A DNA stretch of 64,000 nucleotides. It comes from a virus (Duplodnaviria; Caudoviricetes). The notes beneath the pieces were generated by a model. It had not been told where the DNA came from, ran no database searches, and worked only from the letters and a program-made list of their open reading frames with translations. The first letter of the stretch is position 1. Each line of letters opens with the position of its first letter. The DNA is taken from positions 1 through 64,000 of the IMG/VR virus record IMGVR_UViG_3300033463_000010; one strand, written 5' to 3'. This document shows positions 1 through 63,988 of the stretch, in pieces. A program made the position numbers and the translations under genes.

Positions 1-15
1 GCAAAGGTCAAGGAT

Positions 16-549
16 TTGTTCTTGCAGTGGCGTGGCGAAGACGGTGACATTTTCAAGGAAGACTGCGAAAACAGCCTTGCGGAAATGTTCCCGAACTCCG
101 ATTTGAAAGTGCAGTATTCCTTGACCTATTCCCAGGGTGACGGCTTCAACACCTACGGCACCTTGAGCATCAAGGACCTGCTCAACGCAGATTTCAGCAA
201 ATACCCGCTCAACGATTCGGGCATTACCGCACCTGCAAACAAGGACGCTATCCTTGCTGCTTGCGACAAGGCTGACGTTTACGACATTGACCTTGAAGAA
301 AACCGTCGCTACGGCTATTCTTTGGCTGACCGCCTGGAAGTCGTCCCGAACAACGACGAAGACCTCACCGACGAAGACACCGCCCTGTTGAGCGACCTTG
401 AAACCTTTGCCCGTGAAGTAATGGAAGCAATCAATAGCAAGTTTGAAAAGAACGGCTATGACTACTTCTACGAAATGAGCGAAGAAGAAGTCCGTGATAT
501 GGCAGACGCAAACGACTACGAATTTACCGAAGACGGTGAATTAGCCTAA
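16..549 (+). CDS. Acidic phage protein, probably the 3' part of a gene starting before the window
   Basis: Frame open from the window edge; very acidic; C-terminus YDYFYEMSEEEV..ANDYEFTEDG resembles a recurrent phage/plasmid domain. Confidence 0.6.
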   Translation: MFLQWRGEDGDIFKEDCENSLAEMFPNSDLKVQYSLTYSQGDGFNTYGTLSIKDLLNADFSKYPLNDSGITAPANKDAILAACDKADVYDIDLEENRRYGYSLADRLEVVPNNDEDLTDEDTALLSDLETFAREVMEAINSKFEKNGYDYFYEMSEEEVRDMADANDYEFTEDGELA

Positions 550-559
550 CAGGTAAGAA

Positions 560-1582
560 ATGCCACACAAAGCGTTCCTTAAAAAGAAGTCGCTACTTGA
601 CAGGTTCAAGGACGACCACGAACGGACGGGCTACATACAGTCTGCCCGTGCGAAGCATACCTGGAACAATCCGCTTACCAGGCGTAAGCGGACAAAGGAA
701 CTCAACGGGTGGATTAAGTCGTTCGCAGGCAAGAACCATATACGCAAGCTGTCCAGGTTCAACGCACAGCAAGCGGGGCGGTATGAATCCTTACAGGTAG
801 CTCACCCCGACGTGGAGTTTGACTGCCTGCGTTATGCCAACACGCTTGAACTGCCGAACGGTGTATGCGTGAAAGTCTATCCGACAATCCGCTGCCCCCG
901 TAGGTGTGCGTTTGTTTTCCGTGTAATGGGCTTCGGTGAAGTGGACCCCGACTTGAACAAGAATGCGGGAAAACTTAACTATGCCATACACGGGTATTAC
1001 CCCGTATATGGTCTTGAACGCCAACCGTCCGAGGAATTTGACATTTACTGCGACGACGTTAGCGAACTACAAAAATGGTCCGACTGCAACGGTTGGGGTA
1101 TGGGTGTAGGTCCGTCGGCTTCTTCTATGGAAGTTGCCAGGGAAGTCGCAAAGGGCAAAGAAACTATGAAGAACGAAAAGGCTATACCTATAAACTTCAA
1201 TCTGTGCTACACGTTTGACCTTGACGACGAACTTGCTAAAAAGTTTACAGACGGTGCCAAAGGCAATAACAAAATATCTGTCCAACAGAACGACGGATAT
1301 ACCGACGTTTTCTTTGATAAACTAGATGACCTCGTTGATTTCCTGGACGAAGTTGCAGTTGGGGCAGATAGTGACAAGGTTGACAATTCGTTCCGTTATG
1401 CAGTCTTGAATTGCAAACGCAGCAGGATTGACCCTGCCGACTTACAGCCGTGTGCCGACAAGTATGGCGTAAAAACAAAGATTGAAAAGTCTATGAACCA
1501 AAACGGTTTACCCGAATACGAAGTCACGCTGTATAAGGACTTTGACGACGTGTCCGCAACGCTTGTGGACTTTGGATTTTAA
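560..1582 (+). CDS. Hypothetical protein, basic N-half and acidic C-half
   Basis: 340-aa ORF in a co-directional gene run. Confidence 0.6.
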   Translation: MPHKAFLKKKSLLDRFKDDHERTGYIQSARAKHTWNNPLTRRKRTKELNGWIKSFAGKNHIRKLSRFNAQQAGRYESLQVAHPDVEFDCLRYANTLELPNGVCVKVYPTIRCPRRCAFVFRVMGFGEVDPDLNKNAGKLNYAIHGYYPVYGLERQPSEEFDIYCDDVSELQKWSDCNGWGMGVGPSASSMEVAREVAKGKETMKNEKAIPINFNLCYTFDLDDELAKKFTDGAKGNNKISVQQNDGYTDVFFDKLDDLVDFLDEVAVGADSDKVDNSFRYAVLNCKRSRIDPADLQPCADKYGVKTKIEKSMNQNGLPEYEVTLYKDFDDVSATLVDFGF

Positions 1583-1594
1583 CGGAGGCTATCT

Positions 1595-3616
1595 ATGGCT
1601 AAAATTACTGAACGATTTGACCCGTCGCAATATGACTATTTCAAGGCAAGCTACACGCTTGACGGCACCAACCGTGTAAAGAACACCAACGGTATCGTTG
1701 ACGCACAGGGAACGCTTGAAATGGCACAGCGACACGGTGCAACCAACCTTAATTTGGTAGGTGTCAAGGACGGCACCGAAACCGATATTCCGTTGAGCGA
1801 CGTAGGTATTTCCGAAAGCAAGGACGAAGCTATGTCCTTGAAAGGTTTCCTTGAAACCCTGGAAGAAAAACTTGTAAAGCAGTTTGACCTTGACGAAGAA
1901 GAAGTGAAGAATTACCTGGACACTCACACCCAGGAAATGCAGGAACTTTTGGACGACAAGGAATTGTCCCTCAAGGAAAAGGTGCTGTTCGTGCGTAGCG
2001 AAATCACGGGCGAAAAGGACGAAGCTAGGGGACCCGCAGAATATACAGTCCATTCTTACAATGATACCGACGTGGTTCATTATGAAGACGGAACACCCGA
2101 AGAATGGAAGTGTAAACGCTGTGGTGGATTAGAGGGCGGTGAAGACGGTGAACCTTACGGGTATTATATTACAAATTCCAAAGGCAAAACCGTAATGTCA
2201 CCGTTATGCTCCGATTGCGTGGATGATGCCTGTGCTATACTTAATGCAACCCACGGAAATATCAGTAAGGCTCTTGGAGTTTCCGAATCCAAAGGACCCA
2301 CAGAAGAAAAGTTGGGCTACGAAAAGGGACATAAAAACAGCAAAGGCGAAAATGCCCCCTGGGTAATTCGCAGCCACGAAGACAACCGCATTCTTGCGTC
2401 GTTCGCAAAGAAAACAGACGCAGAAGAACATTTGCAGCGTATGAAACAATATAGCAAACAGGAAAGTATGTCCGCTGACGAACTTGACAAGTATATCAAG
2501 GACGTAAAGTCCTTGCTCAAATCCAAGTATGGTATGGACTTCAACGACAAGGACACCTGCCGTCTTAACGTCGGTTGGTTGGAAAAGTTGGACGCTATGT
2601 TCTACCAGGGCAAGCCCGTTGAAGACGGTGCAAAGGAAGTCGCAGCGTTCTGTGGCTACAACAAGAACGAATCCAAGCAGTCCGAAGCGAACGGACCTTT
2701 TGACGCACCTATCAAGGATTGGTATATGGGTGCATACAAGGAAGACGACCTGGGCGACAGGCTCAACGGAACGTTCAAGGGTGCCCTTCAAACCTTGATG
2801 CGTGGCGACGACATTTACGACTACATTGGTGTAGGCGACTCCCTTATTCGTGAACGCCTGTTTAGCAAACTTGCAGCAATGATTGACGTTGACTACGACG
2901 AAATCTACAACGTGTGGCTTAACGAGGGTGCTGCGAGCAACGAACTGACTGCCAAACTTAACAAGATTGGCATAAAGCGAACCAGGACTATCCCGCCCAC
3001 TATCAAGGACAAGGTGAAAAGACTAGGTAGGGGCGTATTACCCCCGAAAATCGTAAAGGTTAAGGGCGAATCCAAGAAATCCGAACGCCTGTTCAATAAA
3101 GCCGAAATGGAAAAAATCGCATTGTCCGAAGCGTCTAGCCTTGACAACTACCGCAGCGACGTTATTTCCGAACTTGTGGTGTCGTTCCATTATGGCGAAG
3201 ACGGGGCAACCAAACTAGCCGACAAACACAGCGACACCATAAATGACGCTTACGTTGAGGGCGAATTGCTCCCGTATGAAACGGCAAGGCTAATCGCCCG
3301 TCAAGACGGAAACGGCTACGCCAACGAAAGCAAGCAATCCAAATCCAAGAAATCCGAAAGCAAGAAATCCGAAGTCCACCTGGAATTGATTGACACAATC
3401 ATTGTTCCGAAGTGGCTGTGGGAAGCCTACAATTTCGGTAATGAATACGGTGAAGACCTGGACGAACACGAACAGAACATTCTTTCGGAGTTCCAGGAAA
3501 AGTATTCCGATTGCCACCTGGACGACGAAAGCGAAGAAGCCTATTTCAGCAGCAACAATGACTTTGATAGTTATGGTGGGCTGTGCTTCACCGTCAAGGT
3601 GTATAAGGAAAAGTAA
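1595..3616 (+). CDS. Modular polyprotein-like protein with ESK(K/Q)SE linkers; candidate internal head protein
   Basis: 673 aa; GGAGG RBS; small domains (including CKRC..CSDC Zn finger) separated by SESK, NESKQSE, GESKKSE and ESKQSKSKKSESKKSE. Confidence 0.75.
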   Translation: MAKITERFDPSQYDYFKASYTLDGTNRVKNTNGIVDAQGTLEMAQRHGATNLNLVGVKDGTETDIPLSDVGISESKDEAMSLKGFLETLEEKLVKQFDLDEEEVKNYLDTHTQEMQELLDDKELSLKEKVLFVRSEITGEKDEARGPAEYTVHSYNDTDVVHYEDGTPEEWKCKRCGGLEGGEDGEPYGYYITNSKGKTVMSPLCSDCVDDACAILNATHGNISKALGVSESKGPTEEKLGYEKGHKNSKGENAPWVIRSHEDNRILASFAKKTDAEEHLQRMKQYSKQESMSADELDKYIKDVKSLLKSKYGMDFNDKDTCRLNVGWLEKLDAMFYQGKPVEDGAKEVAAFCGYNKNESKQSEANGPFDAPIKDWYMGAYKEDDLGDRLNGTFKGALQTLMRGDDIYDYIGVGDSLIRERLFSKLAAMIDVDYDEIYNVWLNEGAASNELTAKLNKIGIKRTRTIPPTIKDKVKRLGRGVLPPKIVKVKGESKKSERLFNKAEMEKIALSEASSLDNYRSDVISELVVSFHYGEDGATKLADKHSDTINDAYVEGELLPYETARLIARQDGNGYANESKQSKSKKSESKKSEVHLELIDTIIVPKWLWEAYNFGNEYGEDLDEHEQNILSEFQEKYSDCHLDDESEEAYFSSNNDFDSYGGLCFTVKVYKEK

Positions 3617-3638: not shown

Positions 3639-3670
3639 AAGGCTCCCGTCCGCAAGGGCGGGTGTCTTTT
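3639..3670 (+). terminator. Intrinsic terminator
   Basis: cccgtcc-gcaa-gggcggg stem followed by tgtctttt. Confidence 0.65.
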
Positions 3671-3674
3671 GCTA

Positions 3675-3703
3675 TTGACCGATTGCAGATAATTTGTTAG
3701 ATT
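3675..3703 (+). promoter_or_regulatory. Sigma70-type promoter for a probable leaderless gene
   Basis: TTGACC-17 nt-TAGATT; ATG 3710 follows 6 nt later. Confidence 0.6.
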
Positions 3704-4151: not shown

Positions 4152-4188
4152 AATACCTATTGACAATCAATAGGTATTTTGTTATATT
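4152..4188 (+). promoter_or_regulatory. Promoter overlapped by a palindromic operator
   Basis: TTGACA(4160)-17-TATATT(4183); perfect 12-bp IR AATACCTATTGA/TCAATAGGTATT. Confidence 0.8.
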
Positions 4189-8392: not shown

Positions 8393-10195
8393 ATGGCTGA
8401 AAATGGACTTGCGGGATTAAGCACCGCAGACTTGTATAAGGCTGCTGCGATAGCCGAAGGCTACGAATCCGTCCCTGTTGACATTGAAACGTTCATTAAC
8501 GACCCGTTCTACATTGGCGAAATCTACGGTGAGGGTCGTGTCTATCCCTATTGGTTGGACAAGCTGAAAAAGCTGTTCCCGAACCCGCTTTACAGCCCGT
8601 TCATTGAAGTTTGCATTACGGGGTGTATCGGTGCGGGTAAGTCCACGGTGTCCATTATCGGGGTCCTTTATGACCTGTATAGGGTGACGCTGCTGAAAGA
8701 CCCGCACAAGAAATTCAAGCTAATCCCGACCACGCCTATCGTGATTACGCTCATTACCGCAACTATGGACCTGGCGGGTGCCGTTCTTGCGGACCAACTT
8801 ATAGACGTTATTGGCTGTTCCCCGTATTTCCGTTCAAAGCTGCTTCCAGGCAAGGGCGACAAGATAGACGAAGAAATGTTTCCCCACCACGTAGGTATCG
8901 CCTACGGTTCCCGTATGCGTCACTCTTTGGGCAAGGCTGTCATTGGGGCTATCATTGACGAAGCGAACTTCCAAAACGCAGTAGCGGACCAGGCGGTGCA
9001 GAACTACAACAGCATCCGTCGTCGTATGTTTTCCCGTTTTATGACTAAAGGCGGTGAAGTGCCCTGCCGTATGTGGGTCGTGTCGTCCCGAAACGAAAGC
9101 ACGTCGTTCCTTGAAAGCCATATTGATGCAGAACGCAACAACCCGAAAGTCGCTATCTTTGAGCCTGCCATTTGGGAAGTCCAGGCACACAAGGGCATTT
9201 ACAGCGGGGCGACCTTCCCCGTCTTTATCGGTTCCGACATTGAGCAGCCGAAAGTCATTACAAGCGACGCAGAACTTGACGACTACCAGGGTCGTGTTAT
9301 CCAGGTCCCCGTTGAATACCGAAAGGACTTTGAGAACAATTTGCCTGGTGCCTTGCAGGATTTGGCGGGCGTGGCTACCCGTAACGGTGTGAACCTAATC
9401 TACAACGTGGAAGCCCTGGATAGGTCAATGTGCCTGGAAAACTGTATGACTACGGACGAACTGCACCTTACCTTGAACGACAACGACCAAATCGCTGACT
9501 TTTACAAGGGGAACTTGCCGAAAGGCAAGTATTACGTCCATTTGGACGGTGGCTTGCGTAGCGACCGTTTCGGCTTTGCTATGAGCCGTGTCACGGAGCA
9601 GATAACGGTCACGACCACTTCTGCTGTTAGCGGTGTGGAAGTGAGCAAGATTAGCCCCGCAGTTGAAACCCCGCTTGTGTTCGGTATAAAGGCGTTGCCA
9701 GGGTCCGAAGTCCCGTTTTGGAAGGTCCGTGTGTTCCTGGTTTACCTGCGTAGCCAGGGCGTGAACATAGCCTTGATTACGTGCGACGGCTACCAATCTG
9801 CCGATATGATGCAGCTACTCACGAAGTTGGGATTTAACGTGAAATACGCTTCTGTGGATAAGACCAAAGACCCGTATTTGAAGTTGAGCAGCAACATTCT
9901 TTTGAGTTTGATTAAAATGGCGAAGTCCCGTATTTTGAGGACCGAACTAATTAACCTGCAAAACCTCCCGAAGAAGATAGACCACCCTGCTACAATCGTC
10001 GTGGACGGGAAGCAGGTTGCGGGTGGCAAGGATATTGCGGACGCTGTGGCTTCTAGTTCCTACGAAGCTATCTGTGCTTCTATGACCCTGGGTGCGTCGT
10101 CGCTGCTCCAAATGCAGCAGTCAAAGCCTACACAAATGACTATGCACCAACGCCAGGAATACGTTATGGAGCATTTCTTCAAAATGAAAAGGTAG
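8393..10195 (+). CDS. terL: Terminase large subunit
   Basis: Walker A GCIGAGKS, Walker B AIIDEAN, nuclease motifs VHLDGG, CDGYQS and KDIADAV. Confidence 0.9.
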   Translation: MAENGLAGLSTADLYKAAAIAEGYESVPVDIETFINDPFYIGEIYGEGRVYPYWLDKLKKLFPNPLYSPFIEVCITGCIGAGKSTVSIIGVLYDLYRVTLLKDPHKKFKLIPTTPIVITLITATMDLAGAVLADQLIDVIGCSPYFRSKLLPGKGDKIDEEMFPHHVGIAYGSRMRHSLGKAVIGAIIDEANFQNAVADQAVQNYNSIRRRMFSRFMTKGGEVPCRMWVVSSRNESTSFLESHIDAERNNPKVAIFEPAIWEVQAHKGIYSGATFPVFIGSDIEQPKVITSDAELDDYQGRVIQVPVEYRKDFENNLPGALQDLAGVATRNGVNLIYNVEALDRSMCLENCMTTDELHLTLNDNDQIADFYKGNLPKGKYYVHLDGGLRSDRFGFAMSRVTEQITVTTTSAVSGVEVSKISPAVETPLVFGIKALPGSEVPFWKVRVFLVYLRSQGVNIALITCDGYQSADMMQLLTKLGFNVKYASVDKTKDPYLKLSSNILLSLIKMAKSRILRTELINLQNLPKKIDHPATIVVDGKQVAGGKDIADAVASSSYEAICASMTLGASSLLQMQQSKPTQMTMHQRQEYVMEHFFKMKR

Positions 10196-10216
10196 CTATC
10201 GGTCTATATTACAAGT

Positions 10217-11158
10217 ATGAATGTTTGCGATTTAGATATTGAACTTTGGAAGTTTAGGGACATTTACTTTGACGAGGGACCCCACGTCTATACTGACTCT
10301 TTGGGGACCAAATACACGTCCGTCACCACGTTCGTGCAGCAGTGCGGTGAACACCTGGAACTTGAAAAATATGTGGGCGAGTTCTCACTGCAAAGCGGTG
10401 TCCCGAAGGACGACCTGTTTTCTATCTTTGACGGCAGCTTCAAGGATTTGTCGCTTCCCGTAATTTACGAAATGCTTACGTGCGACAGGGCTGACGTTCC
10501 CGAAGACTTGCTGAAGGCTTTGGTTGCCCGTGACAAGTATAAGTTCTGCGACATTTTGAAATGGCGTGAAATCGCACAGAACTACGCCACGAAGCACAAT
10601 ATGGACGTTGCCGACGTGCAGGCTATGTGGGACAAGAACAAGAACGAGGCTGCGTCTATGGGCACCCAGGTTCACGCCTATATGGAAAACCTGTGGCGAC
10701 GTAAGCATTACGAACCCGAAGTCCCCGTGGGTGACTACGAAACCGTCCGAAAGAACGGGTTGGAAGCCTACAAGTATCTGTGCCGTCGGTTCGTCCCTAT
10801 CCGTAACGAATTTATTGTCTATAAGCCCAAATGGGCTTTGTGCGGGACGATTGACTTCCTGTGTTGGGACCGTGCCGACGACTGCATAGCCATTTTGGAT
10901 TGGAAGACAAACAAGACAATTGACAGGGAAAACCAATATCGCAGGTGCGTGGGTCCGCTTGACGGATTGCCCGACTGCAACTTCACGCACTATTCTGCTC
11001 AATTAAGCACCTACAAGCTGCTCATAGAGAGAATGACAAATTTGCGTGTTGAAGAATTGGCGTTGGTCCACTTGAAGCGTGACGGTTGGGAGTTCATACC
11101 CTGTATGGACTTGAGCGTTGAAATAGGTGCTTATTTGGGCAATAGAAACAAGGGGTAA
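10217..11158 (+). CDS. PD-(D/E)XK exonuclease
   Basis: GTQVHAYME, GTIDFL, ILDWKT and YSAQLSTY motifs. Confidence 0.85.
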   Translation: MNVCDLDIELWKFRDIYFDEGPHVYTDSLGTKYTSVTTFVQQCGEHLELEKYVGEFSLQSGVPKDDLFSIFDGSFKDLSLPVIYEMLTCDRADVPEDLLKALVARDKYKFCDILKWREIAQNYATKHNMDVADVQAMWDKNKNEAASMGTQVHAYMENLWRRKHYEPEVPVGDYETVRKNGLEAYKYLCRRFVPIRNEFIVYKPKWALCGTIDFLCWDRADDCIAILDWKTNKTIDRENQYRRCVGPLDGLPDCNFTHYSAQLSTYKLLIERMTNLRVEELALVHLKRDGWEFIPCMDLSVEIGAYLGNRNKG

Positions 11159-11163
11159 AGATT

Positions 11164-11568
11164 ATGGCAGTTTCAGCCGAAGTAATGAAAGAAGTAATGC
11201 AGGAAGCAGCCGACTACTGCGGTGTTGAAATCGGGGACTTGTCGGACGGCTTCCATACGTTCAACAGCCTTTACAGGCAGCGTTGCGTCCTGTTCGCCAC
11301 GCTTGTAAACCTGTTCCCCGAACATTCCTGGAAATCCAGGAAGCACGAAGACGGCAAGCCGTGTTTCGGGGGCGGTTGGTTCATTGTCTGCATAGACACG
11401 CCCGACGGTCCGTATTCGTATCACTACGAAGACAAAGATTGGGATATGTTCAAGTGCAGGTCCCTGGAACGTGCGAAGCACTTTGACGGGCACACTGACA
11501 AGGACGTTGGCAGGCTCTTGTCGCTTGCTATGCAGACGTTTGCCAAGCATACCCAAAATCTTGCCTAA
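11164..11568 (+). CDS. Conserved phage protein (WDGH-like domain)
   Basis: SDGFHTFNSLY..SWKSRKHEDG..SYHY..FDGHT. Confidence 0.7.
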   Translation: MAVSAEVMKEVMQEAADYCGVEIGDLSDGFHTFNSLYRQRCVLFATLVNLFPEHSWKSRKHEDGKPCFGGGWFIVCIDTPDGPYSYHYEDKDWDMFKCRSLERAKHFDGHTDKDVGRLLSLAMQTFAKHTQNLA

Positions 11569-11578
11569 AATGGCGTAT

Positions 11579-11615
11579 ATCCGTAAGCCGTGCGTTTTGC
11601 CGTTTACGGATTTTT
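11579..11615 (+). terminator. Intrinsic terminator
   Basis: atccgtaa...ttacggat followed by a T run. Confidence 0.55.
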
Positions 11616-11630
11616 ATTTATATTTAGGCT

Positions 11631-12878
11631 ATGGCAACAAAGCGTGATAGGGTAAATCGTGTAAAGGGCTTGGTCTATCTACCGATAGACGGTTCCCGCC
11701 TGGTTAAAGGCGAGCGGGTCACTTTGACGCACGTCCAGGAAGCTGACATTTTCCCCGACGTGATTAAGGACCCTATGGAAATGAGGGAGCCGATAAATGG
11801 CGACGCTGTTGGCGACGCTATCTTTGACGCTATGCTTGATGGCTATTCGGATGATTATTTGGTTTGTGACGCTATGGCTTCTTTTGGAACAGGTAGCATC
11901 GTTCTGCATAAAATTTTGCAGGGTACAGGGTTTGACCCCAATATGCAGTTTAACGTGAGGGTTTCTTTGGGTGGTTCTACCCCTGTTTTATATACTATGA
12001 AAGCGGGTCAAGCGATTATTTTGGAAGATATACGTGACGGTACACCTTATGAAGTTACAGAAGAAATTACTGCGGAACAGTTAGCTGATGGGTACTCTTT
12101 ACAGTCTATTGACCCCGCTCAAGGTGTTGTGAATTATTTGAAAAAAATTGATGTGAGTATAATTAACAAATATGAACGTCCGCAGTTTTATGGAAGTTTA
12201 TTTGTTTCTTTGATTATTACGGGCAATGGGTTTGATGAAGACAAGGTGTTTAAGGTTACTGTACAGTTCAGTGAACCCGTGAATTATTCAGTGGATGGCA
12301 GTGAGCCTATTGCTAGGGCTTCACGTATTTATGTTGCAAGGCTTAAACACGGTCAGTCTGTATTACTTGGGCATATTCTTGTTGGTGCAACTTATAACGT
12401 AGTAGCAGTTCCGTTATCACCACAAGATATTGAAAGTGGCTATGAGTATTCCTCTGTGACGGGAGGTTCGGGTTCCATAGTGCGAGATGCTACGGCTACG
12501 TCTATTGTAAATTACACTTATTACGGAGATACGGGTAGCCTTGTTGTTACCGCCTTGGTGGATAATCCCGAAGACGGGAAACTGTTGCATATAGCTATTA
12601 CGTTTAGCCGTGTAGTAAACTATTCCGTTAATGGTGGTTCGCCCTTACGTGATGGTTCATCAGTATATGTAGCTACATTGGCACATAATGAAAGTGTTGT
12701 GCTTTCCAATATACCTAACGGGGTTTCTTATGCGGTCACACCGTCTATTACTGCAACTGAATTGACAGATGGGTATTCACCCGATACGTCCGATGGCACT
12801 TATCCGAGAAGTGGCACGATATTTTCTAGGAATAGCCCCGAACAGGTTGTAGTCAAGTTTGCGAAAACAAATGAATAA
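11631..12878 (+). CDS. Virion protein with three Ig/CnaB-like repeats
   Basis: Three repeats of GS[IL]..[FL]..V.F..L.H.[QE]SV.L..I..G..Y.V. Confidence 0.65.
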   Translation: MATKRDRVNRVKGLVYLPIDGSRLVKGERVTLTHVQEADIFPDVIKDPMEMREPINGDAVGDAIFDAMLDGYSDDYLVCDAMASFGTGSIVLHKILQGTGFDPNMQFNVRVSLGGSTPVLYTMKAGQAIILEDIRDGTPYEVTEEITAEQLADGYSLQSIDPAQGVVNYLKKIDVSIINKYERPQFYGSLFVSLIITGNGFDEDKVFKVTVQFSEPVNYSVDGSEPIARASRIYVARLKHGQSVLLGHILVGATYNVVAVPLSPQDIESGYEYSSVTGGSGSIVRDATATSIVNYTYYGDTGSLVVTALVDNPEDGKLLHIAITFSRVVNYSVNGGSPLRDGSSVYVATLAHNESVVLSNIPNGVSYAVTPSITATELTDGYSPDTSDGTYPRSGTIFSRNSPEQVVVKFAKTNE

Positions 12879-12893
12879 TGTTATATTGTAGAT

Positions 12894-13433
12894 ATGAGTT
12901 TTAGTGGGATAGACATAGTTCACGAATATAGCATAGACGGGTCTAATTACATAGACCACGGCTTTGTTGTATTAAAGGATTCTAGTGGCACTACCCGTGT
13001 TCCGTTGAACGACTTGCAAGGGTTCAAGGGTGTAAAGACTGTTGAAGAATTGGAATACTTGGCAGGTATGTCTGTAAATGACGTGTATGCTGTATCGGAT
13101 AGTGGCACGTTGGTAAACCCCGATGGCACGGCTTTGGTAATAGTCAAAGGCGACTTGGTTCAATATGACGGCACTAAATGGGTGTTGATGATTCGTCTAA
13201 CGAACTATGTGTCGTTTGAAAAGTTCAAGGACACCGTTGAAATGCTAACCGCTGCCATTGCTAGTGCCTTTGCAGCGGAACACGCCTATACCCGTGAGCA
13301 TATAGAAGAAACTTGGGAAAGTGGAAACCCTCATAATATCAATGCTATTATAGCCGATGGGTTGCGGATGGGTCCTGGGGGTGAGCATACATTGAAGTTT
13401 TACAGGTCTAGTCAGCCCTATCCCGATGAATAA
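12894..13433 (+). CDS. Tail-associated protein
   Basis: FKG..GDLVQYDGTKW motif seen in tail-fibre domains. Confidence 0.55.
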   Translation: MSFSGIDIVHEYSIDGSNYIDHGFVVLKDSSGTTRVPLNDLQGFKGVKTVEELEYLAGMSVNDVYAVSDSGTLVNPDGTALVIVKGDLVQYDGTKWVLMIRLTNYVSFEKFKDTVEMLTAAIASAFAAEHAYTREHIEETWESGNPHNINAIIADGLRMGPGGEHTLKFYRSSQPYPDE

Positions 13434-13453
13434 GTTTAGAATGGAGGTGCATT

Positions 13454-15121
13454 ATGCCCGAAGGACAAGAATTACAGCAGGTGGCACAGATAGCCGATTA
13501 CATTTTGTCGCTTATTCGTGACGATAGTGGTAATCGTTGGCTTATCTTTTCAAAGGGTCTTGAAACCCAAGTAACCGTAGGTCTTAATGGCGATGTTACG
13601 GGTTCTGTCACTACGGACTTTTCGCAGGGGACTGCGGGTCATAGTGGCAATAACCAAATTACTACTACAATCGGAAATAAGAAGGTCACGCATTCCAAGA
13701 TTGATGACAGTGCTGTAGAAAATAATAATATAGCCGACCAAACTATTGAACTTAGTAAGATTGCGTTAAGTGCTTTTGGTAATTCGGACCCCGCTACTGA
13801 TAACGATGGGCATATTACTACACACGCACAACTTGTAAGTTATGTATCAAGCATTCTTCGGGGTTATGGTCAAAACTATGGCGTTTTGAGTGTCGCTGAC
13901 ATTAACGCTATGACTTTGGATAACTTAAACAATGGCGACTTGTGTATTGTAGGGGGTATTGACGAGCAGCACCCCGCCAACGTCATTACATTAGGTAATT
14001 TGACAGTCCGTAATGGCGAAAATTTGATTTTCCATAAGACGGGAACAGGGGCATCAACTACGGGAGTATGGCAGTCTATTGACGGTGAGTTCAAGTTGAT
14101 ACAGACTGCTGTAAGTGACCCCGTATCTAGTGGTAGCGGTATAGATTTTATTGCTACTATATCACAGAACACCAATGGCGAGATTACAGTTACAAAGAAA
14201 TCCGTCCGTATCGCTAATGGGTCGCAGTCGGGCGTGGTTACACTTTCCGATTCGCATACAAGTACGTCGGGGGTGAACGACGGTGCTGCTGCTACGCCAA
14301 AGTCTGTCAAGGACACCTATGATTTCGCTGCAACCAAGGCGACAAAGGTGGCTAACGCAACGGAAAACAATCTTGTAGCGTTGGACGCTAATGGTGACTT
14401 GAAGGATAGCGGTAAGAAGGCTAGTGATTTTGCCACGTCAGCCCAAGGCAGTAAAGCAGATTCGGCAATTCAAGGCGTTAAGGTAAACAACACTGAACTG
14501 ACCAAGGATAGTGCTAACAAGGTAAACATTCCTCTTGCAGTAGCCCCTAACCAATCGCAGTCCGTTGCGGGTAATGATGGTGCTATGTCCAAAGAGGACA
14601 AGGCTCTTGTAGATACAATACCCGACAAGGCAAACAAGGTAGATAATGCAACAGAAAATAACTTTGCAGCCTTGGACGCTAATGGCGACTTGAAAGACAG
14701 CGGAAAGAAAGCAGGCGATTTTGCTGATGTACACCACAGCCACGGCAACATAAACGAGCAGGGTCAGATACTTTCTACGGGTGCAGCAGCCATTTCAAAT
14801 GGTTGTGCTATTGTATATACCGACCAAACTAATCTTATAAAAAAATCTACGGACACGTTTGACGGAAGTTCGGACTATAAGGCTCTTACTCAAAAGGGAA
14901 CGTTTGTAGAAATTGTAAAGGATGTCAAGTTAGGTTCCGCACAAGCGACACCGCTTACGAAAACGAATGGCACTGTTGTTATCCCTATGGCAGCACCTAC
15001 GGGGACGGGTGAAACTAGCGGTTTGATGTCCGCAGCGGATAAGGCTAAACTTGATGGTATTGAAACAGATTCTATAACCGCAACCGACGTTGCCGATATG
15101 TGGGCAGCATTGACCGCCTAA
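13454..15121 (+). CDS. Tail fibre protein
   Basis: GVVTLSD..AATPKSVK repeat, duplicated LDANGDLKDSGKK, GLMSAADKAKLDGI. Confidence 0.85.
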   Translation: MPEGQELQQVAQIADYILSLIRDDSGNRWLIFSKGLETQVTVGLNGDVTGSVTTDFSQGTAGHSGNNQITTTIGNKKVTHSKIDDSAVENNNIADQTIELSKIALSAFGNSDPATDNDGHITTHAQLVSYVSSILRGYGQNYGVLSVADINAMTLDNLNNGDLCIVGGIDEQHPANVITLGNLTVRNGENLIFHKTGTGASTTGVWQSIDGEFKLIQTAVSDPVSSGSGIDFIATISQNTNGEITVTKKSVRIANGSQSGVVTLSDSHTSTSGVNDGAAATPKSVKDTYDFAATKATKVANATENNLVALDANGDLKDSGKKASDFATSAQGSKADSAIQGVKVNNTELTKDSANKVNIPLAVAPNQSQSVAGNDGAMSKEDKALVDTIPDKANKVDNATENNFAALDANGDLKDSGKKAGDFADVHHSHGNINEQGQILSTGAAAISNGCAIVYTDQTNLIKKSTDTFDGSSDYKALTQKGTFVEIVKDVKLGSAQATPLTKTNGTVVIPMAAPTGTGETSGLMSAADKAKLDGIETDSITATDVADMWAALTA

Positions 15122-55150: not shown

Positions 55151-55275
55151 TAGGTAATTTGTTATATACTATGGTTGTGCCCGAAGTAATGCTCATTTTG
55201 CGTGTTCCCCTGTTGCACGACGGGGGAATTTGTTGTTATTTTTAAGAACGTAAAAACTAAACCAGGAGTTTATTT

Positions 55276-55899
55276 ATGCAGTATGTCGTTGACGAATCCT
55301 TAACCAACTTCAAGTTTTGGAGTGGTGCTGCTGACAACGCCAAACTTTTAGAATACAGCGAATTGCAGGAATTGGATGATGTTCTTCCCGAATACTTTAA
55401 TACGGGCGACGGGAACCTCCCGACTGCAACTGAAATCAACGATATGTTTTGGTTTGATTTCGCCACTGTCTGCGAAGCCATCGGCTTGCAGTATGACGAA
55501 GAAAAGGGCGAAATTATCCGTGACAACGACGAAAGCCGTAAGAAGCGTTCCGAAGCCAACGGCAACGACAAGGTGGGTAAGCAGAACTTCACCTATGCAG
55601 AACTTGAAGATGCCTGGAACAAACTCAACGCCCGCATTCAGCGTGACCCGTTTGACAAGGACAATCCCCCGTCGGGTGGTTATGACATTCGCAACGGATA
55701 TGCCTGTGGCGAACGTGATTGGAACGATTGGCACATTGACTTTTCCCTTGACGCTGTTAAGAAAGCCCTTGAAGAAGTGGCTGAACCGATTAAGGAAGGC
55801 GACCTTGAAGTTTACTACAATGACAAGGACAATAATCAAGCCGATTCCGACAATCACGGTATCTTTATCATTGACGGCAAGATTGACACCATTTACTAA
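55276..55899 (+). CDS. Two-domain acidic protein with ESRKKRSE linker
   Basis: FKFWSGA..TEINDMFWFD domain, linker, second domain. Confidence 0.7.
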   Translation: MQYVVDESLTNFKFWSGAADNAKLLEYSELQELDDVLPEYFNTGDGNLPTATEINDMFWFDFATVCEAIGLQYDEEKGEIIRDNDESRKKRSEANGNDKVGKQNFTYAELEDAWNKLNARIQRDPFDKDNPPSGGYDIRNGYACGERDWNDWHIDFSLDAVKKALEEVAEPIKEGDLEVYYNDKDNNQADSDNHGIFIIDGKIDTIY

Positions 55900-56960: not shown

Positions 56961-58004
56961 ATGCAGATTGCAGAAGACTATATTCCGTTTAAGTGTGAGT
57001 TCATTGACGACATTTCCCGTGTTGACGAATCCGCACAATCCGAAGTTGCTAAAAGTGGTGGCACCATTCTCGCCATTGTCAAGGGTCAGCATTTCTGCCC
57101 TGGCAAGGTAAGCCGTAACCACCGCCTTTATACTCCCGAACTTTGGGAAGAAGCAGGTAAGGACGAAGACGTGCAGCGTAAGTTGACCAACGGACAAATG
57201 TTCGGTCGTATCGGTCACGAAGCCGAAATTACCGACGAAGATATTGCCGACGGCAAGTTTAGCCACATTACCCGCAACATTGATTGGAAGACGGGTATCG
57301 CTGAATCTGTTATCTACAATACGGATATGGGTAAGACGCTTTACACTATCCTTCGTGCGGGCACTACTATGTTTGTCAGTTCCCGTGCCGATGGCGACTA
57401 CGAAGGTAAGGACGAAGACGGCAACGATATTCTTGACCCGAAGACCTACAAACTTGAACGCTTTGACTTTGTGCAGGACCCTGGGTTCCTGGACGCAAAG
57501 CCGAAGATGATTTCCGAAAGCAAGCAGAATGAAAAGATTGAAGAAACCGTCAAGGAACGTGTCGCAGAATCCCTGCTTTCGCTTGCAAAGGAACTTGGGG
57601 CACCCGTTGAACTTGACGGCAGCACCTACGTCGTAGAAAGCCTGGAAAAGAACACTGTTGAAATGACAGATTGTGACAAGGGCACAGGCGACACTTACAA
57701 GTTTGAAGACTTTACCGAAGTGACCGAAGACATTAAGCAGTCTATCGTGAAGTTCGTTGAAGGCTTGCAGGAAGAAGTGAAGCAGTCCGCAGACACTATC
57801 CGTGACTTGAAATTCGCTAACAAGAATGGCTTGAACGAAGCCTACGTGACCGAACGTCGTCGTGCAGGTGCTACTTACGAAGCGATTGAACGTGAGCAGC
57901 CCGAAACGCAGACCTTTAAGGTCCTGGAAGCAAAGGCACCCGCCCGTGAAGCCGAAGACAACGACGGGTCCTTGATTGGTTATATTCTCGGCAGCAAACG
58001 TTAA
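56961..58004 (+). CDS. Prohead protease (T4 gp21-like)
   Basis: SRNHRLY, GRIGH, SH, VSSRADG, FDFVQDPGFLDA. Confidence 0.9.
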   Translation: MQIAEDYIPFKCEFIDDISRVDESAQSEVAKSGGTILAIVKGQHFCPGKVSRNHRLYTPELWEEAGKDEDVQRKLTNGQMFGRIGHEAEITDEDIADGKFSHITRNIDWKTGIAESVIYNTDMGKTLYTILRAGTTMFVSSRADGDYEGKDEDGNDILDPKTYKLERFDFVQDPGFLDAKPKMISESKQNEKIEETVKERVAESLLSLAKELGAPVELDGSTYVVESLEKNTVEMTDCDKGTGDTYKFEDFTEVTEDIKQSIVKFVEGLQEEVKQSADTIRDLKFANKNGLNEAYVTERRRAGATYEAIEREQPETQTFKVLEAKAPAREAEDNDGSLIGYILGSKR

Positions 58005-58619: not shown

Positions 58620-59237
58620 ATGGCACTCCGAATTAACATACACGAAAGCAAGAAGACAGAAGCCCAGGGTCTTGTGTTTCTGCCCGATGGCTTGAAATCC
58701 GACATTGAATACGAACTCCCGTCGCTTTACAGGGCTAACGGACTTGCTGTGTTCAAGGGTAAGGAAGAAGTTGAACCCGACGCAGCCTGGGACGTAGAAG
58801 ATATGTCCTGGGACGTTGACGAAGCCACCGTGTGCGACGATTACCTTATGGTCGCTTTCAAGGACAATCCTGGTGCCGAAAAGGTCAAGTCCATTATGGC
58901 TGACGAATACAAAAAGGCTGTTCTGCCCGAAGCCCTGGAACTTGTCGGCTACATTGACGTGGGTGCCCTGCGTGACGCTTACGCCAAGCAGATTGTGGAC
59001 GCTACAAAGGGCAAGGAATTTGAACTAGGCTACTACCTGGGCGATATTAACGATATGGGTGACGTTCCTGGTGGAATTGACAATGCCTATACCGAAGACG
59101 GGGAAGTTAGTTGTATGGTCGGTGCTTTCGGTTTCGTCGTTGCCGAGGCTGCTAACGGCAGCGAAATCAAGGACACGCAGTCCGCAGACGAAGCCTTGAA
59201 GTTGGTTGAAGAAATGTATAACAAATACAAGGCGTAG
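58620..59237 (+). CDS. Acidic protein with shared leader
   Basis: MALRINIHESKKTE. Confidence 0.65.
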   Translation: MALRINIHESKKTEAQGLVFLPDGLKSDIEYELPSLYRANGLAVFKGKEEVEPDAAWDVEDMSWDVDEATVCDDYLMVAFKDNPGAEKVKSIMADEYKKAVLPEALELVGYIDVGALRDAYAKQIVDATKGKEFELGYYLGDINDMGDVPGGIDNAYTEDGEVSCMVGAFGFVVAEAANGSEIKDTQSADEALKLVEEMYNKYKA

Positions 59238-59245
59238 GGCTGTCT

Positions 59246-59635
59246 ATGGGCTTGAAGATTAAAATGCAAGAAGCGTCCAGGAATGACGAAATCCTGGGCT
59301 TGCTTTCGGAAAAGGGTTTTACCGTGGACCAGGAAGCAAGCGATAGGGAGGACCGCCTGGTAGCCTATAAGCAATATAAGGCTCACGGCTACTGCGTCGG
59401 GGATGTTACGTTAGTTGTCAAGTATGACGCATACGTGAACCGCAGCCTGTTTATGAACGTGCTGTCTAATAGTTATGCTAACATTAGACTTAAACGTTCC
59501 GATAGTATCTTTGAAACGTCTATCGTGGATAATCGGGATATGGTTAATCTTGAAGAAGCCCGTCGCTGTATCGGTAATGCCGAACGTGCGGTAAATATGT
59601 ATATTTCAGCATTAGAAACAATTTACGAGGTATAA
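59246..59635 (+). CDS. Hypothetical protein with shared leader
   Basis: MGLKIKMQEAS. Confidence 0.65.
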   Translation: MGLKIKMQEASRNDEILGLLSEKGFTVDQEASDREDRLVAYKQYKAHGYCVGDVTLVVKYDAYVNRSLFMNVLSNSYANIRLKRSDSIFETSIVDNRDMVNLEEARRCIGNAERAVNMYISALETIYEV

Positions 59636-59637
59636 CT

Positions 59638-60675
59638 ATGTTTAACTGCTCTATGCAAAAGAAGAAAGAAAGCCTTGCCAAGCAAAATGAATACAAGCGT
59701 GGCGAACTTGATTTTAGGGGTGGCTTTGACTTTAACGGTAAGCCGAAGAAGTCCGTTATTTCCAAGATTAGCAAAGCCCTTGATAAAGCGGGCATTTCCG
59801 CAGTCGTGGACCCGTCGGGGGAACGCTTGGAAGTTCCCTTTGGCGATGATGCTGTGTATATGACGGCTATGAGCCAAAGTTATGGTTCTAGCAAGTGCAG
59901 TTATGTCAATGTTCGCCAAAAGAGCGACCGTAGCACTGACGTGGGTGTTTATAACGTTGGGGATGCCGTGAGTGTCGTGCAGGAAATTACACAGGGGCTA
60001 GACGCTCCCAATGAATCCAAGAAATCCGAATCCGCAGCAGGTCGTTCGTTCTATGACGAATTTATTGCCGAACGTGCCCGTGATATTCTTGAAGAATACG
60101 ACGTGAACGAAGCCCAGGGCGGTATGTGCGATTATTGGTATAACATTGGCGACGGTGTTGAAGATATGGAGCGTGACGACCGCAGTGGCTTTTTCTCTTA
60201 TAACGATGGTGGTGTTCAAAAGACTTGGATGACTACCCCGTTTATGCTTGCGGGCGGTGGCTACCTTGACCCGAAGACGAAACCCGAATATGACCGCCTC
60301 CGTAAGAACTGCGAAGACGACTATCGTGAAGAATGCGAAAAGAATGGGGTTGAGTGCGATTTCAGTTCCGAAGAATACTATGAATTTGAAGACACCTGGT
60401 CCCAGGAAGGTCTTGAAATTTTCGCTTATGCGGAAATTATGCTTTATAGCCGTAATTCCGACCGTGACGAATATACGCTTATTGCCCGTATCAGCCGTAG
60501 TTTTGACTATACCTACGGACGTAACCCGCAGGACGATTTGAACATTGAAATGGATTTGACTTCGGAACAATTCACGAAGGAAAACGCAGACAAGTTCTTC
60601 GCTGCTGTTGAAGAAGCATTCGCCAACTATTCGTTTGACGATGGCGACAAGGAAATTAACGTTAAGGCAGATTAA
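59638..60675 (+). CDS. Two-domain protein with CSMQKKKESL leader and NESKKSES linker
   Basis: Motifs read from the translation. Confidence 0.7.
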   Translation: MFNCSMQKKKESLAKQNEYKRGELDFRGGFDFNGKPKKSVISKISKALDKAGISAVVDPSGERLEVPFGDDAVYMTAMSQSYGSSKCSYVNVRQKSDRSTDVGVYNVGDAVSVVQEITQGLDAPNESKKSESAAGRSFYDEFIAERARDILEEYDVNEAQGGMCDYWYNIGDGVEDMERDDRSGFFSYNDGGVQKTWMTTPFMLAGGGYLDPKTKPEYDRLRKNCEDDYREECEKNGVECDFSSEEYYEFEDTWSQEGLEIFAYAEIMLYSRNSDRDEYTLIARISRSFDYTYGRNPQDDLNIEMDLTSEQFTKENADKFFAAVEEAFANYSFDDGDKEINVKAD

Positions 60676-60699: not shown

Positions 60700-61473
60700 A
60701 TGGCATACAAATGCTCTATGCAGAAGAAAAAGGAAAGCCTTAACACGAAGGCTGAATCCGCTAACTCCAACTATTATTTCAGTATATGGACTGAAAATTA
60801 TCCCAAAAATGGCAAAGAACCCACACGTTATATTAACGTGTATGAGCCTTCGTCTTGTAAGGGTTGGTATGACGTTACAAAGGAATATGACGACGCTTAC
60901 GAAGAAGAAATGGAACTCCGTAATGGTAATGTAAATTACACCTATATCGCCAAGAAAGTTATTGATAAAATTATTTCGGGTGCCATTAAGCCTTGTGATG
61001 ACCCGTATGACACTATCCCTAACTTTTCTAGGTGGTTCAAGGAATATCCGTTTAACATAAGTGAACACACCCAGGATTTCCTGGACGGGAAGTATGGTTC
61101 TCGCAGCGAATCCAAGAAGCACACTTGTTCTATGCAGAAGAAAAAAGAAAGTCTTGCTGCGAAGAAGTCCAAGAAGTGCGAAGGCTTTATGGATGACCTG
61201 CCGTATGACGCACCCGTAGCCATTGAAACCCTGTGTTCCGAAATTATGAGCCACACCGAAGAATTTACCATTGAAGACGCAGCCGTGGCTGAAATGTGCG
61301 GTAAGTGGTATATTCGTGATTACGCAAATGGTTCTACCGCAGCACAGAACGAAGACGAATTTGTTGACGAAATCCTTGCAGGTCTTTCGGGCAGTCCTTT
61401 GGACGGCTCCCCGTTCGGTGCAGCCGAAGCCGAAGAATACGCCAGGAAGATTTACAACGAAGTCGTTGCTTAA
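60700..61473 (+). CDS. Two-domain protein with two CSMQKKKESL motifs
   Basis: N-terminal and internal copies. Confidence 0.7.
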   Translation: MAYKCSMQKKKESLNTKAESANSNYYFSIWTENYPKNGKEPTRYINVYEPSSCKGWYDVTKEYDDAYEEEMELRNGNVNYTYIAKKVIDKIISGAIKPCDDPYDTIPNFSRWFKEYPFNISEHTQDFLDGKYGSRSESKKHTCSMQKKKESLAAKKSKKCEGFMDDLPYDAPVAIETLCSEIMSHTEEFTIEDAAVAEMCGKWYIRDYANGSTAAQNEDEFVDEILAGLSGSPLDGSPFGAAEAEEYARKIYNEVVA

Positions 61474-62338: not shown

Positions 62339-63988
62339 ATGAAGACTTCCGTTGAAGAAATGTCTAATCAGAAATACAACCGCCTCGTAGAATCCTACGA
62401 AGCCCGCTATGGCAAGCAGTTTGAAGCCCTTGCCAAGTCCCCGTCGTTCAAGGGCACCTTGTCCAAGAACGCTATGTTCAACCTTGGTCAGCAGATGGAC
62501 AACTACAAGCGTTACGAAAGTTTCGTGAACGAAAATTCCTCGGCTTCTAGCCTTGGTGTGTTGCCCCGTGTTGCTCTTGACCTTATTTCTGCTACCTACG
62601 CACTTTCTATTGCTCCGCAGTTGGCAAGTGTGCAGACGCTTGAAGAATCCCAGGGTCTTATCTACTTCAAGAAGACCTTTACCCACGGCTATCCGCTGAC
62701 TGCCCAGGAAGGACTTCCGTCCCTGCCCGAAGACAGGTGGATGGGTGCCGACGGTAAGTTTGAAGGCGACAAGACTTTCGCAGGTGCCTGGAAGAAGTGG
62801 CTTGACACCCGTGGTCGTCCCGTTGCAGGTCCCGACACCGAACTGACTGCCGAACAACTCGCAGCCAAGAACTTTGACGCTATCACTTTCAACGCCCTCA
62901 AGGGTTGGCAGGCTTCCCCGACGCAGTATATGAGCGAACGTCAGTTTGCTATCGCTGCCGACGGTTCCGCTACCATTAAGTATGGCGTGGGCAACCTCCG
63001 TTGGAACACCCCGATTAACGTCCGTCTTGTTGACAAGAACGGCAACGTTGAAGACGTGGTTGGTGTTTGCGGTGGTCCTGGTCAGTTGCCGACTTTCTAT
63101 GGTAAGGTTTCCGTGACCGCTGCTGCTGTTGGTCCCGACCTTGTTCTTACCATTCCGACGGGCTACCAGGGTGGCGTGACTTATGACGTTGACTTTGAAA
63201 AGGCTCCCGACGTTCCTGCTATTGAATACGCTCTTGACAACAAGGTTGTCAGTGCCGAAATCATTGGCTTGAAGGAAATGATGGGCACGTTCAAGTCTTT
63301 CCAATTCAACAAGCGTTTTGGTAAGGCTGCGTCCGACGAAGTTCTTGCTGACCTTACGGGTCATATGGCTATGGCTGAATCCGAAAAGATTCTTGCTGCC
63401 TATGTCCGTTGTGCTAACAAGTGGAAGCCGATTACCTGGAATCTCAACAAGACCGCAGGTATCAGCGAATTTGAACACCGTCAGTCTTTCCTGTATGCTA
63501 TCCAGGCTGCTTCTGCTGCTATCGGTAGCCGTGCAGGTAAGGGTCACGCTAACAAGATTGTTGCGGGCTACGTCGCTTGTCAGTATATTGCGTCCCTCCC
63601 TGGTTTCCGTCTTGCTCCGCAGACCAACCTTGTGGGTCCGCACGTGTATGGCACTCTTGAAAACGAAGGTATCACGGTTATCCGTTCCAACACCATCGTT
63701 GCCCCGAACGAAGTTATCTGTGCTTACAGCAGCGATAACAGCCCGTTTGAAGCACCTGTTGTGTGTGCAACGTATATGCCTGTGTTCCTCACCGACACTA
63801 TGCCTGTTGCCGACAACCCGTTCCAAACGCAGCGAGCAATCGCTTCTTGGAAGGCTATTGAACCTGTGGTTGCCGAATTTGTGCAGCGTATCGTCATCAC
63901 AAATGATGCCGAAGCACCTGCCGACGTGAACGTGTTCCTTACTACCACCCCGAACGGTGGCAGCGGTAGCGGTTCTAGCAACGGCTAA
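62339..63988 (+). CDS. Major capsid protein (T4 gp23-like)
   Basis: LASVQTL..GLIYF, KVVSAE..L, A..IGSRAGKG.AN.IV, ATYMP; 549 aa. Confidence 0.9.
   Translation: MKTSVEEMSNQKYNRLVESYEARYGKQFEALAKSPSFKGTLSKNAMFNLGQQMDNYKRYESFVNENSSASSLGVLPRVALDLISATYALSIAPQLASVQTLEESQGLIYFKKTFTHGYPLTAQEGLPSLPEDRWMGADGKFEGDKTFAGAWKKWLDTRGRPVAGPDTELTAEQLAAKNFDAITFNALKGWQASPTQYMSERQFAIAADGSATIKYGVGNLRWNTPINVRLVDKNGNVEDVVGVCGGPGQLPTFYGKVSVTAAAVGPDLVLTIPTGYQGGVTYDVDFEKAPDVPAIEYALDNKVVSAEIIGLKEMMGTFKSFQFNKRFGKAASDEVLADLTGHMAMAESEKILAAYVRCANKWKPITWNLNKTAGISEFEHRQSFLYAIQAASAAIGSRAGKGHANKIVAGYVACQYIASLPGFRLAPQTNLVGPHVYGTLENEGITVIRSNTIVAPNEVICAYSSDNSPFEAPVVCATYMPVFLTDTMPVADNPFQTQRAIASWKAIEPVVAEFVQRIVITNDAEAPADVNVFLTTTPNGGSGSGSSNG

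Follow-up and report, generated by a model that had tools for sequence, protein, structure and literature searches.

The stretch of viral DNA analyzed here (the window, 64,000 nucleotides (nt)) comprises positions 1 to 64,000 of IMG/VR record IMGVR_UViG_3300033463_000010, the initial 64 kb of one contig of 213,231 bp. The contig is circular (255-nt terminal overlap with 1 mismatch, leaving 212,976 unique bases), and its source is a large, uncultured tailed phage. Open reading frame (ORF) 1595–3616 encodes a polyprotein of 673 amino acids (aa), with a mass of 75.9 kDa and an isoelectric point (pI) of 4.9, that is made up of eight modules (D1, D2a, D2b, D3, D4, D5, D6 and D7) and seven junctions. 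A sequence-only reading of the window had seen about seven small domains separated by the linkers SESKDE, SESKG, KQES, NESKQSEANG, GESKKSE and NESKQSKSKKSESKKSE. All of these linkers were found in the ORF and the modular make-up stands; the modules number eight, since the junction DEARGPAE (aa 142–149) had been overlooked. The parts are as follows:

1595–3616 (+): polyprotein ORF
1595–1612 (+): N-terminal MAKITE, a degenerate KI-x-HE leader ending in Glu; the same junction reads LKIKIKE, TIKLHE or TIKVHE in orthologs
1613–1810 (+): module D1 (aa 7–72), alpha/beta, with a predicted local distance difference test (pLDDT) score of 81–91; its presence varies among relatives
1811–1828 (+): linker 1, SESKDE (aa 73–78), pLDDT <50 at aa 75–78
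1829–2017 (+): module D2a (aa 79–141), helical (segment BLAST and AlphaFold2 model)
2018–2041 (+): linker 2, DEARGPAE, which forms the left member of a pair of 24-nt imperfect direct repeats around D2b
2042–2281 (+): cassette D2b (aa 150–229), rich in Cys, with two CxxC pairs, a probable zinc ribbon; a variable slot
2282–2308 (+): linker 3, SESKGPTEE (aa 230–238), the right copy of the direct repeat (2282–2305); E238 is invariant
2309–2452 (+): module D3 (aa 239–286), three strands and a helix, pI 9.4, present in 85 of 85 aligned relatives
2453–2464 (+): linker 4, SKQE (aa 287–290; SKQE/S at aa 287–291); E290 is invariant
2465–2665 (+): module D4 (aa 291–357), helical (segment BLAST and AlphaFold2 model)
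2666–2686 (+): linker 5, NESKQSE (aa 358–364), followed by ANG (to aa 367); disordered in the model
2687–3064 (+): module D5 (aa 365–490), modelled as a helical core (aa 365–446) and a basic, proline-rich tail
3065–3085 (+): linker 6, GESKKSE (aa 491–497), holding an 18-mer that recurs at 60013
3086–3322 (+): module D6 (aa 498–576), helical (segment BLAST and AlphaFold2 model)
3323–3373 (+): linker 7, NESKQSKSKKSESKKSE (aa 577–593); E588 and E593 are invariant
3374–3613 (+): module D7 (aa 594–673), alpha/beta with weak similarity to DUF6926, found in every one of the 85 aligned relatives

The AlphaFold2 model, for which the 85 relatives served as the alignment, has a predicted template modelling score of 0.28. 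All seven junctions appear in it as stretches with pLDDT <50 between the modules. Confidence is mostly high for D1, D2a, D4, D5, D6 and D7 and moderate for D3; D2b, which few relatives have, is itself modelled poorly. The disordered linkers and independent domains that the sequence-only reading had anticipated were thus recovered, with D2b as the poorly predicted exception. A low-confidence region at aa 465–514 spans, in order, the D5 tail, the linker and a short helix. With a cut computed behind every linker Glu, the pieces would have masses of 6.1–14.9 kDa, and D3 (pI 9.4) and D5 (pI 9.0) are predicted to be basic and the others acidic. The D5 tail (2930–3064, aa 446–490) is basic, proline-rich and of low confidence, and lies directly before linker 6. 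By analogy with the internal proteins of phage T4, which bind DNA, this tail may bind DNA as well.

The residue that directly precedes a module is Glu in nearly every distinct context found among the relatives (D1, 10/10; D2a, 34/34; D3, 44/44; D4, 3/3; D6, 37/38), and D7 is preceded by Glu or Glu-Gly in 29/29. E238, E290, E588 and E593 are invariant columns of the 85-sequence alignment, and positions P2–P6 of the junctions vary widely among relatives. The junction ahead of D1 takes three forms in relatives. P0010 and P0107 have a KI-x-HE-type leader at the N-terminus, P0002 has the same type of leader at an internal position behind a fused upstream module, and P0003 and P0004 have an ESKNE linker. 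No fewer than 14 ORFs of the genome also open with the KI-x-HE leader, and the head module contains several of these. In ORF 1595–3616 the N-terminus is the 6-residue MAKITE, of which I-T-E fits a hydrophobic-x-Glu pattern; P0010, P0002 and P0107 have the full leader there.

We defined a strict hexamer, ES[KR][KQR][SNT]E. It occurs 12 times, against 0.05 occurrences expected from proteome composition and 0.03 in within-protein shuffles, and throughout the 213-kb genome all 12 copies are coding and in the plus-strand frame. Three lie in ORF 1595–3616, eight in the head module (57.5–69.8 kb) and one at 211317, in a 506-aa ORF of the polyprotein's own operon. The polyprotein and the head module, which hold 11 of the 12, account for 7.9% of residues (binomial P ~8e-12). 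The shorter ES[KR] is likewise enriched in ORF 1595–3616 (6 vs. 0.68 expected, P ~5e-5). The linkers that the sequence-only reading had noted in ORFs 55276, 59638 and 60700 are present, and the 18-mer said to be shared has exactly two copies in the genome, at 3068 and 60013. Among six ESKKSE sites there are four nucleotide versions, a variation that points to selection acting on the linker peptide. A purely DNA-level recombination signal was considered as the cause of linker conservation, and the synonymous variants argue against it. Ser codons are nevertheless biased towards TCC (15 TCC and 5 AGC among 20, whereas both codons together make up 58% in the same genes).

The head-module features that fall within the window are:

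55276–55899 (+): ORF with a DESRKKRSE-ANG linker
56961–58004 (+): T4 gp21-type prohead protease (phrog_207, E 3.6e-22; Pfam S77 at 21.9 bits, below the cut-off of 27)
58620–59237 (+): ORF with linker or leader
59246–59635 (+): ORF with linker or leader
59638–60675 (+): ORF with linker or leader
60700–61473 (+): ORF with linker or leader
62339–63988 (+): gp23-type major capsid protein (Pfam Gp23, 40.6 bits, above the cut-off)

A hexamer lies in the protease ORF itself (nt 57516–57533, aa 186–191), directly after the catalytic domain, and the motif occurs within the first 15–35 residues of head-module ORFs 58620, 65316 and 69690. In the protease ORF and in such N-terminal leaders the motif would stand where nothing needs linking. 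These positions, together with the invariant Glu and the interchange of leader and linker, make the connection between linkers and head protease stronger than the sequence-only reading had it. The capsid protein is ~30% identical to its closest isolates and has V-N-E at aa 63–65, just before the conserved core; we take this to be a likely propeptide site, T4 gp23 being cut after residue 65.

Homologs of the polyprotein number 208, all metagenomic (449–1133 aa), and the relatives come exclusively from metagenomic contigs of 210–227 kb. Segment BLAST of the relatives showed that modules are present or absent exactly at linkers. Approximate clustering of 120 relatives yielded 92 architectures and several dozen cassette families; these cassette counts are approximate, as single-linkage clustering merged modules and stricter clustering still has composite families. 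Between D2a and D3 lies a slot with 0 to ~4 cassettes, for which 52 distinct fillings were seen; an empty slot keeps one hybrid linker. D2b is bounded by the 24-nt imperfect direct repeats at 2018–2041 and 2282–2305, and relatives devoid of D2b have a single hybrid copy. A blastn comparison with relative P0038 gave three collinear blocks with both breaks inside linker DNA; the cassette inserted in P0038 carries its own K-K-S-E end, and linker 6 forms the left breakpoint. Cassettes from relatives' polyproteins also match head-module ORFs 64282, 65316 and 68862 of the present genome. For the most part the modules keep a collinear order, with slots for insertions; the exception is P0066, in which D6 stands ahead of D5.

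It is well supported at the sequence level that the linkers serve as recombination joints. The shuffling of domains through linker DNA, which the sequence-only reading had suggested as a possibility, is upheld in that indel breakpoints lie in linker DNA flanked by direct repeats; the pattern is one of insertion slots and not of free shuffling. Similarly, module content among relatives is far from invariant, and it is the order that is mostly kept, with P0066 swapped. The sequence RLFNK-x-E-x-E after linker 6 (3086–3140, aa 498–515) is found ahead of four or more unrelated cassette families in relatives, so the common joint there would exceed the linker and span ~39 nt.

Some modules also exist as proteins in their own right. 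Searching 1.84 billion representatives returned 1345 matches, and stand-alone homologs, for which the sequence-only reading had suggested looking, exist for D3 (62 aa, P0206), D7 (95 aa, P0142) and D5 (many, 77–125 aa); D6 and D7 also occur together in a protein of 219 aa. D5 has 194 relatives in IMG/VR, and at ~70 of 80 fetched loci it is a separate gene of 72–128 aa, mostly ~76 aa. One D5 homolog lies within the 2183-aa protein P0156 together with LPD3, LPD25, ArdC-N and MPTase-PolyVal domains; P0156 is a classical polyvalent protein, unrelated to ORF 1595–3616. Folded alone, D5 is a helical domain (pLDDT 88) with no Foldseek match in the PDB at E ≤ 0.001; its best VIA-align hit is a weak one to LuxR/GerE-type helix-turn-helix proteins (Z 4.7, rmsd 2.7 over 64 residues). 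A PDB profile search, Foldseek and VIA-align found no convincing solved relative of D5, which does not in itself make the fold new.

For the whole protein, neither Pfam nor PHROGs gave a family, nor did they give anything informative for the neighbouring ORFs; tblastn against 50,697 phage records gave no match, and Foldseek with the whole model gave none in the PDB at E ≤ 0.001. Against BFVD the whole model had one marginal match (E 5e-4, TM ~0.1) and single-module matches to small uncharacterised phage proteins. D7 of three relatives scored 17–20 bits against DUF6926 (PF21977), below the Pfam cut-off of 27, and Foldseek gave a probability of 1.00 to a BFVD protein named DUF6926 with the whole model as query, the aligned part being unstated. 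Pfam on nine large relatives returned sub-threshold DUF6926 at most. The hallmark conflict domains (MPTase, ArdC-N, methylases and LPD) were found neither in ORF 1595–3616 nor in these nine relatives.

The polyprotein is the last gene of a plus-strand unit that starts at ~206,989, after a divergent gap, and runs across the circular junction; the unit holds at least six leader-tagged genes. Three features of this unit adjoin the polyprotein:

1–549 (+): 3′ part of a two-module ORF across the circular junction (5′ part 212,4xx–213,231), with an internal CSMQKK-I-ESL linker
560–1582 (+): upstream ORF of 340 aa in the same frame as the polyprotein, fused to it in about half of the relatives
3645–3662 (+): terminator-like hairpin closing the transcription unit

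In the window the gap between ORF 560–1582 and the polyprotein reads TAA, then a GGAGG ribosome site, then ATG, and the two are separate genes. A conserved, strongly basic module of ~73 aa ending in Glu forms the N-terminus of the upstream ORF (560–790) and heads many relatives' polyproteins, including those of the distant P0164, P0187, P0191 and P0200. It is a candidate for loading or DNA binding, and its FLKKKSLL stretch is similar to the CSMQKKKESL leader found on head-module ORFs. The C-terminal module of the junction-spanning ORF matches phrog_5162 (unknown function), and the CSMQKK-type linker also heads ORFs 59638, 60700 and 65316.

We consider it probable that the product of ORF 1595–3616 is a cargo polyprotein that is loaded into the capsid and cleaved behind Glu residues by the gp21-type protease, a concatenated analogue of the T4 internal proteins. 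The protein would be synthesized as eight mini-proteins of 6–15 kDa in a row, each folding independently, and would enter the prohead core, where the T4 gp21-type prohead protease would cut after the Glu ending each linker. The folded pieces would remain in the head and enter the host together with the DNA. The near-identical linkers also serve as recombination joints, and through such joints cassettes are gained, lost and exchanged between the polyprotein locus and the cargo genes of the head module. We infer packaging, cleavage by the ORF 56961 protease, retention or ejection of the pieces, and an anti-host role.

Several points weigh against this explanation. The P3 residue in K-S-E is Lys, whereas Leu/Ile is seen in T4 and Ala/Ser/Gly at phiKZ-type sites; given Lys at P3, the protease would need another subsite preference. 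The protease assignment depends on PHROG; Pfam S77 stays below its cut-off and phmmer with ORF 56961 against PDB sequences gave no match. The polyprotein gene lies 52 kb away from the head module, and the operon promoter looks sigma-70-like, as it does before unrelated genes, with no pointer to late expression. The basic N-terminal module that heads many relatives is here on the separate upstream ORF, and the N-terminus of ORF 1595–3616 itself is a degenerate leader. Pfam, PHROG and homolog searches gave no recognised function for any module. The case as a whole is built from sequence and a predicted model.

Three other explanations were weighed. ORF 1595–3616 might encode an uncleaved multidomain "polyvalent" protein that acts as one polypeptide, packaged or not, its linkers being flexible spacers and recombination joints. 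This would suit the beads-on-a-string architecture, the indel breaks that fall in linker DNA and the D5 homolog inside a classical polyvalent protein (with LPD3, LPD25, ArdC-N and MPTase); moreover, some such proteins are packaged unprocessed, e.g., the N4 virion RNA polymerase (PMC5512222). We nevertheless regard it as unlikely. A spacer has no use for an invariant terminal Glu and no reason to lie within short N-terminal leaders or in the protease ORF, and it would not interchange with the KI-x-HE leader; the synonymous variation suggests selection on the peptide and not on DNA, and the motif is absent from ~300 other genes.

Cleavage by some other Glu-specific protease, of host or phage, in the cytoplasm or after entry and in any case outside the prohead, seems to us decidedly improbable. 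The only proteins with which the motif co-occurs are those of the head module and the prohead protease itself, and in two other lineages described below (contig L077 and the P0147 contig) the equivalent gene lies inside the head module. No second protease was seen in the annotated part of the window, a scope that does not establish its absence. Such a protease would, however, be compatible with the sigma-70-like operon promoter, which permits early expression, with the distance of the gene from the head module and with the P3 mismatch to known gp21-type sites. Slimmer still is the chance that the protein, in the manner of T4 gp22, gp67 and gp68, fills the prohead core or scaffold and is then discarded, its fragments leaving the head and playing no role in the next host. 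The L077 counterpart does occupy the position of T4 genes 67/68, and T4 core proteins are cleaved to short fragments (PMC5694885). Folded pieces of 6–15 kDa, however, would be too large to exit via capsid pores, 92 architectures among 120 relatives are ill-suited to an essential structural role, and in many unrelated phages D5 has a gene to itself.

The cargo polyprotein proposed here shares with the T4 internal proteins (IPI, IPII, IPIII and Alt) the provision of small proteins for the prohead core and a gp21-type protease acting after Glu. The predicted 6–15 kDa pieces fall in the size range of the T4 internal proteins. The latter have a capsid targeting sequence and are encoded by separate genes, each with its own short N-terminal leader (10–20 residues ending in hydrophobic-x-Glu) that is removed after Glu by the gp21-type protease, whereas here eight modules stand in one frame with internal sites. 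Their sites have Leu/Ile at P3, in contrast to Lys in the linker, and the system described here is known from sequence alone. Pfam, PHROG and tblastn in the 50,697 phage records revealed no sequence similarity of IPI, IPII, IPIII or Alt to ORF 1595–3616. The phage encodes both a gp21-type prohead protease (phrog_207) and a gp23-type capsid protein, as T4-type internal proteins require. Like the polyproteins of the relatives, T-even internal proteins are highly diverse among related phages, and at least IPI* has an anti-restriction role (PMC3012670, PMC5694885).

The proteases of T4, phiKZ and SPN3US all cleave after Glu (PMC10052503, PMC5694885). In the giant phages the substrates of phiKZ gp175 and SPN3US gp245 resemble the proposed cargo polyprotein in having a short motif cut after Glu, several sites per substrate and often Ser at P1′ (PMC10052503). 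SPN3US gp245 also removes its own C-terminal propeptide (PMC10052503), and here the hexamer lies at the end of the protease's catalytic domain. In giant-phage substrates the extra cuts break up a long propeptide and a single mature protein remains, whereas the segments between sites are here folded modules, several of them known from other phages as stand-alone genes. Polyvalent proteins (Iyer et al., 2017, PMC5512222) are alike in their many unrelated domains, in their mosaic, fast-changing architectures and in their predicted travel with the DNA; with eight modules and its many architectures, ORF 1595–3616 falls within the range of 2–15 unrelated domains and mosaic architectures by which they are defined. 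They differ in their hallmark domains, none of which was detected in ORF 1595–3616; unlike them, the ORF has no peptidase of its own and uses a uniform, lineage-specific linker common to head proteins. Like the proposed cargo polyprotein, African swine fever virus (ASFV) pp220/pp62 and retroviral Gag are single precursors with repeated short sites that mature in the particle; their uniform sites are cleaved by a protease associated with the virion. Their products are fixed structural components, whereas here the cassette set is variable, and there is no homology.

A published account of such concatenated cargo was not found in the literature. Should cutting of the linkers take place in the prohead, this would be a new packaging format, in which a changeable set of proteins is loaded by concatenation instead of by one gene and one leader each. 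The ~40–80 uncharacterised cassette families would then be candidate injected factors, the invariant Glu with a lineage-specific linker common to head proteins would be a marker of cargo in metagenomic phages, and the rapid cassette turnover between close relatives would be explained. The polyprotein would also be a natural model to follow in engineering capsids that carry several foreign proteins.

Comparable genes were seen in other lineages. In L077, a 15.7-kb IMG/VR contig, positions 9308–11650 encode a 780-aa, D5-bearing protein with ~10 small modules and ~10 ES-[VI]-N-E linkers, which fit the hydrophobic-x-Glu rule of T4. The genes run from large terminase through portal (phrog_213), a 290-aa ORF and the polyprotein to a 199-aa phrog_207 protease (E 1e-49) that carries K-V-N-E at its N-terminus, and the polyprotein occupies the position of T4 core genes 67/68. 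L077 is an independent example of a head-module polyprotein. The 926-aa protein P0147, on a 143-kb ENA contig, has two D5 copies and A-S-R-K-T-A linkers and adjoins cement (PF23968) and sheath genes; no relatives of its lineage were found in IMG/VR. The marine contigs L045, L064 and L070 (e.g., L064:20–6181 and 8726–13630) and L004:3057–6917 have two to three adjacent giant genes encoding up to 2053 aa, with dozens of [YM]-A-[KD]-G-G linkers and almost none in neighbouring genes. The Gly-Gly ends of these linkers are reminiscent of sites of adenain/ASFV-type cysteine proteases. One marine giant gene has a Zeta_toxin/AAA_33 kinase domain.

These sequences suggest that the polyprotein arrangement is general across lineages. 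The linker (E-S-K-K-S-E here, E-S-V-N-E in L077, [YM]-A-[KD]-G-G in the marine contigs and A-S-R-K-T-A in P0147) differs by lineage, as would be expected if each follows its own protease. We propose tentatively, giving it somewhat less than an even chance, that several tailed-phage lineages use "cargo polyproteins": arrays of exchangeable mini-proteins that are separated by a lineage-specific protease site and cut in the prohead into an injected cocktail, with the linker doubling as a joint for cassette moves between loci and phages. If so, they would be a protein-level analogue of the integron for injected counter-defence factors.

A promoter-like element (TTGAC-type −35, TG-extended TTATATT-type −10, then GGT) was noted at 3675–3703, 4160–4188, 55151–55275 and ~206,950–206,988. 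It precedes the polyprotein operon, two downstream units and head gene 55276, and is uninformative on timing. In a related 212-kb contig (L003) the neighbours of the polyprotein at 1866–2417 and 10327–11937 carry Fib_succ_major (PF09603), a hint of a Fibrobacter-like host.

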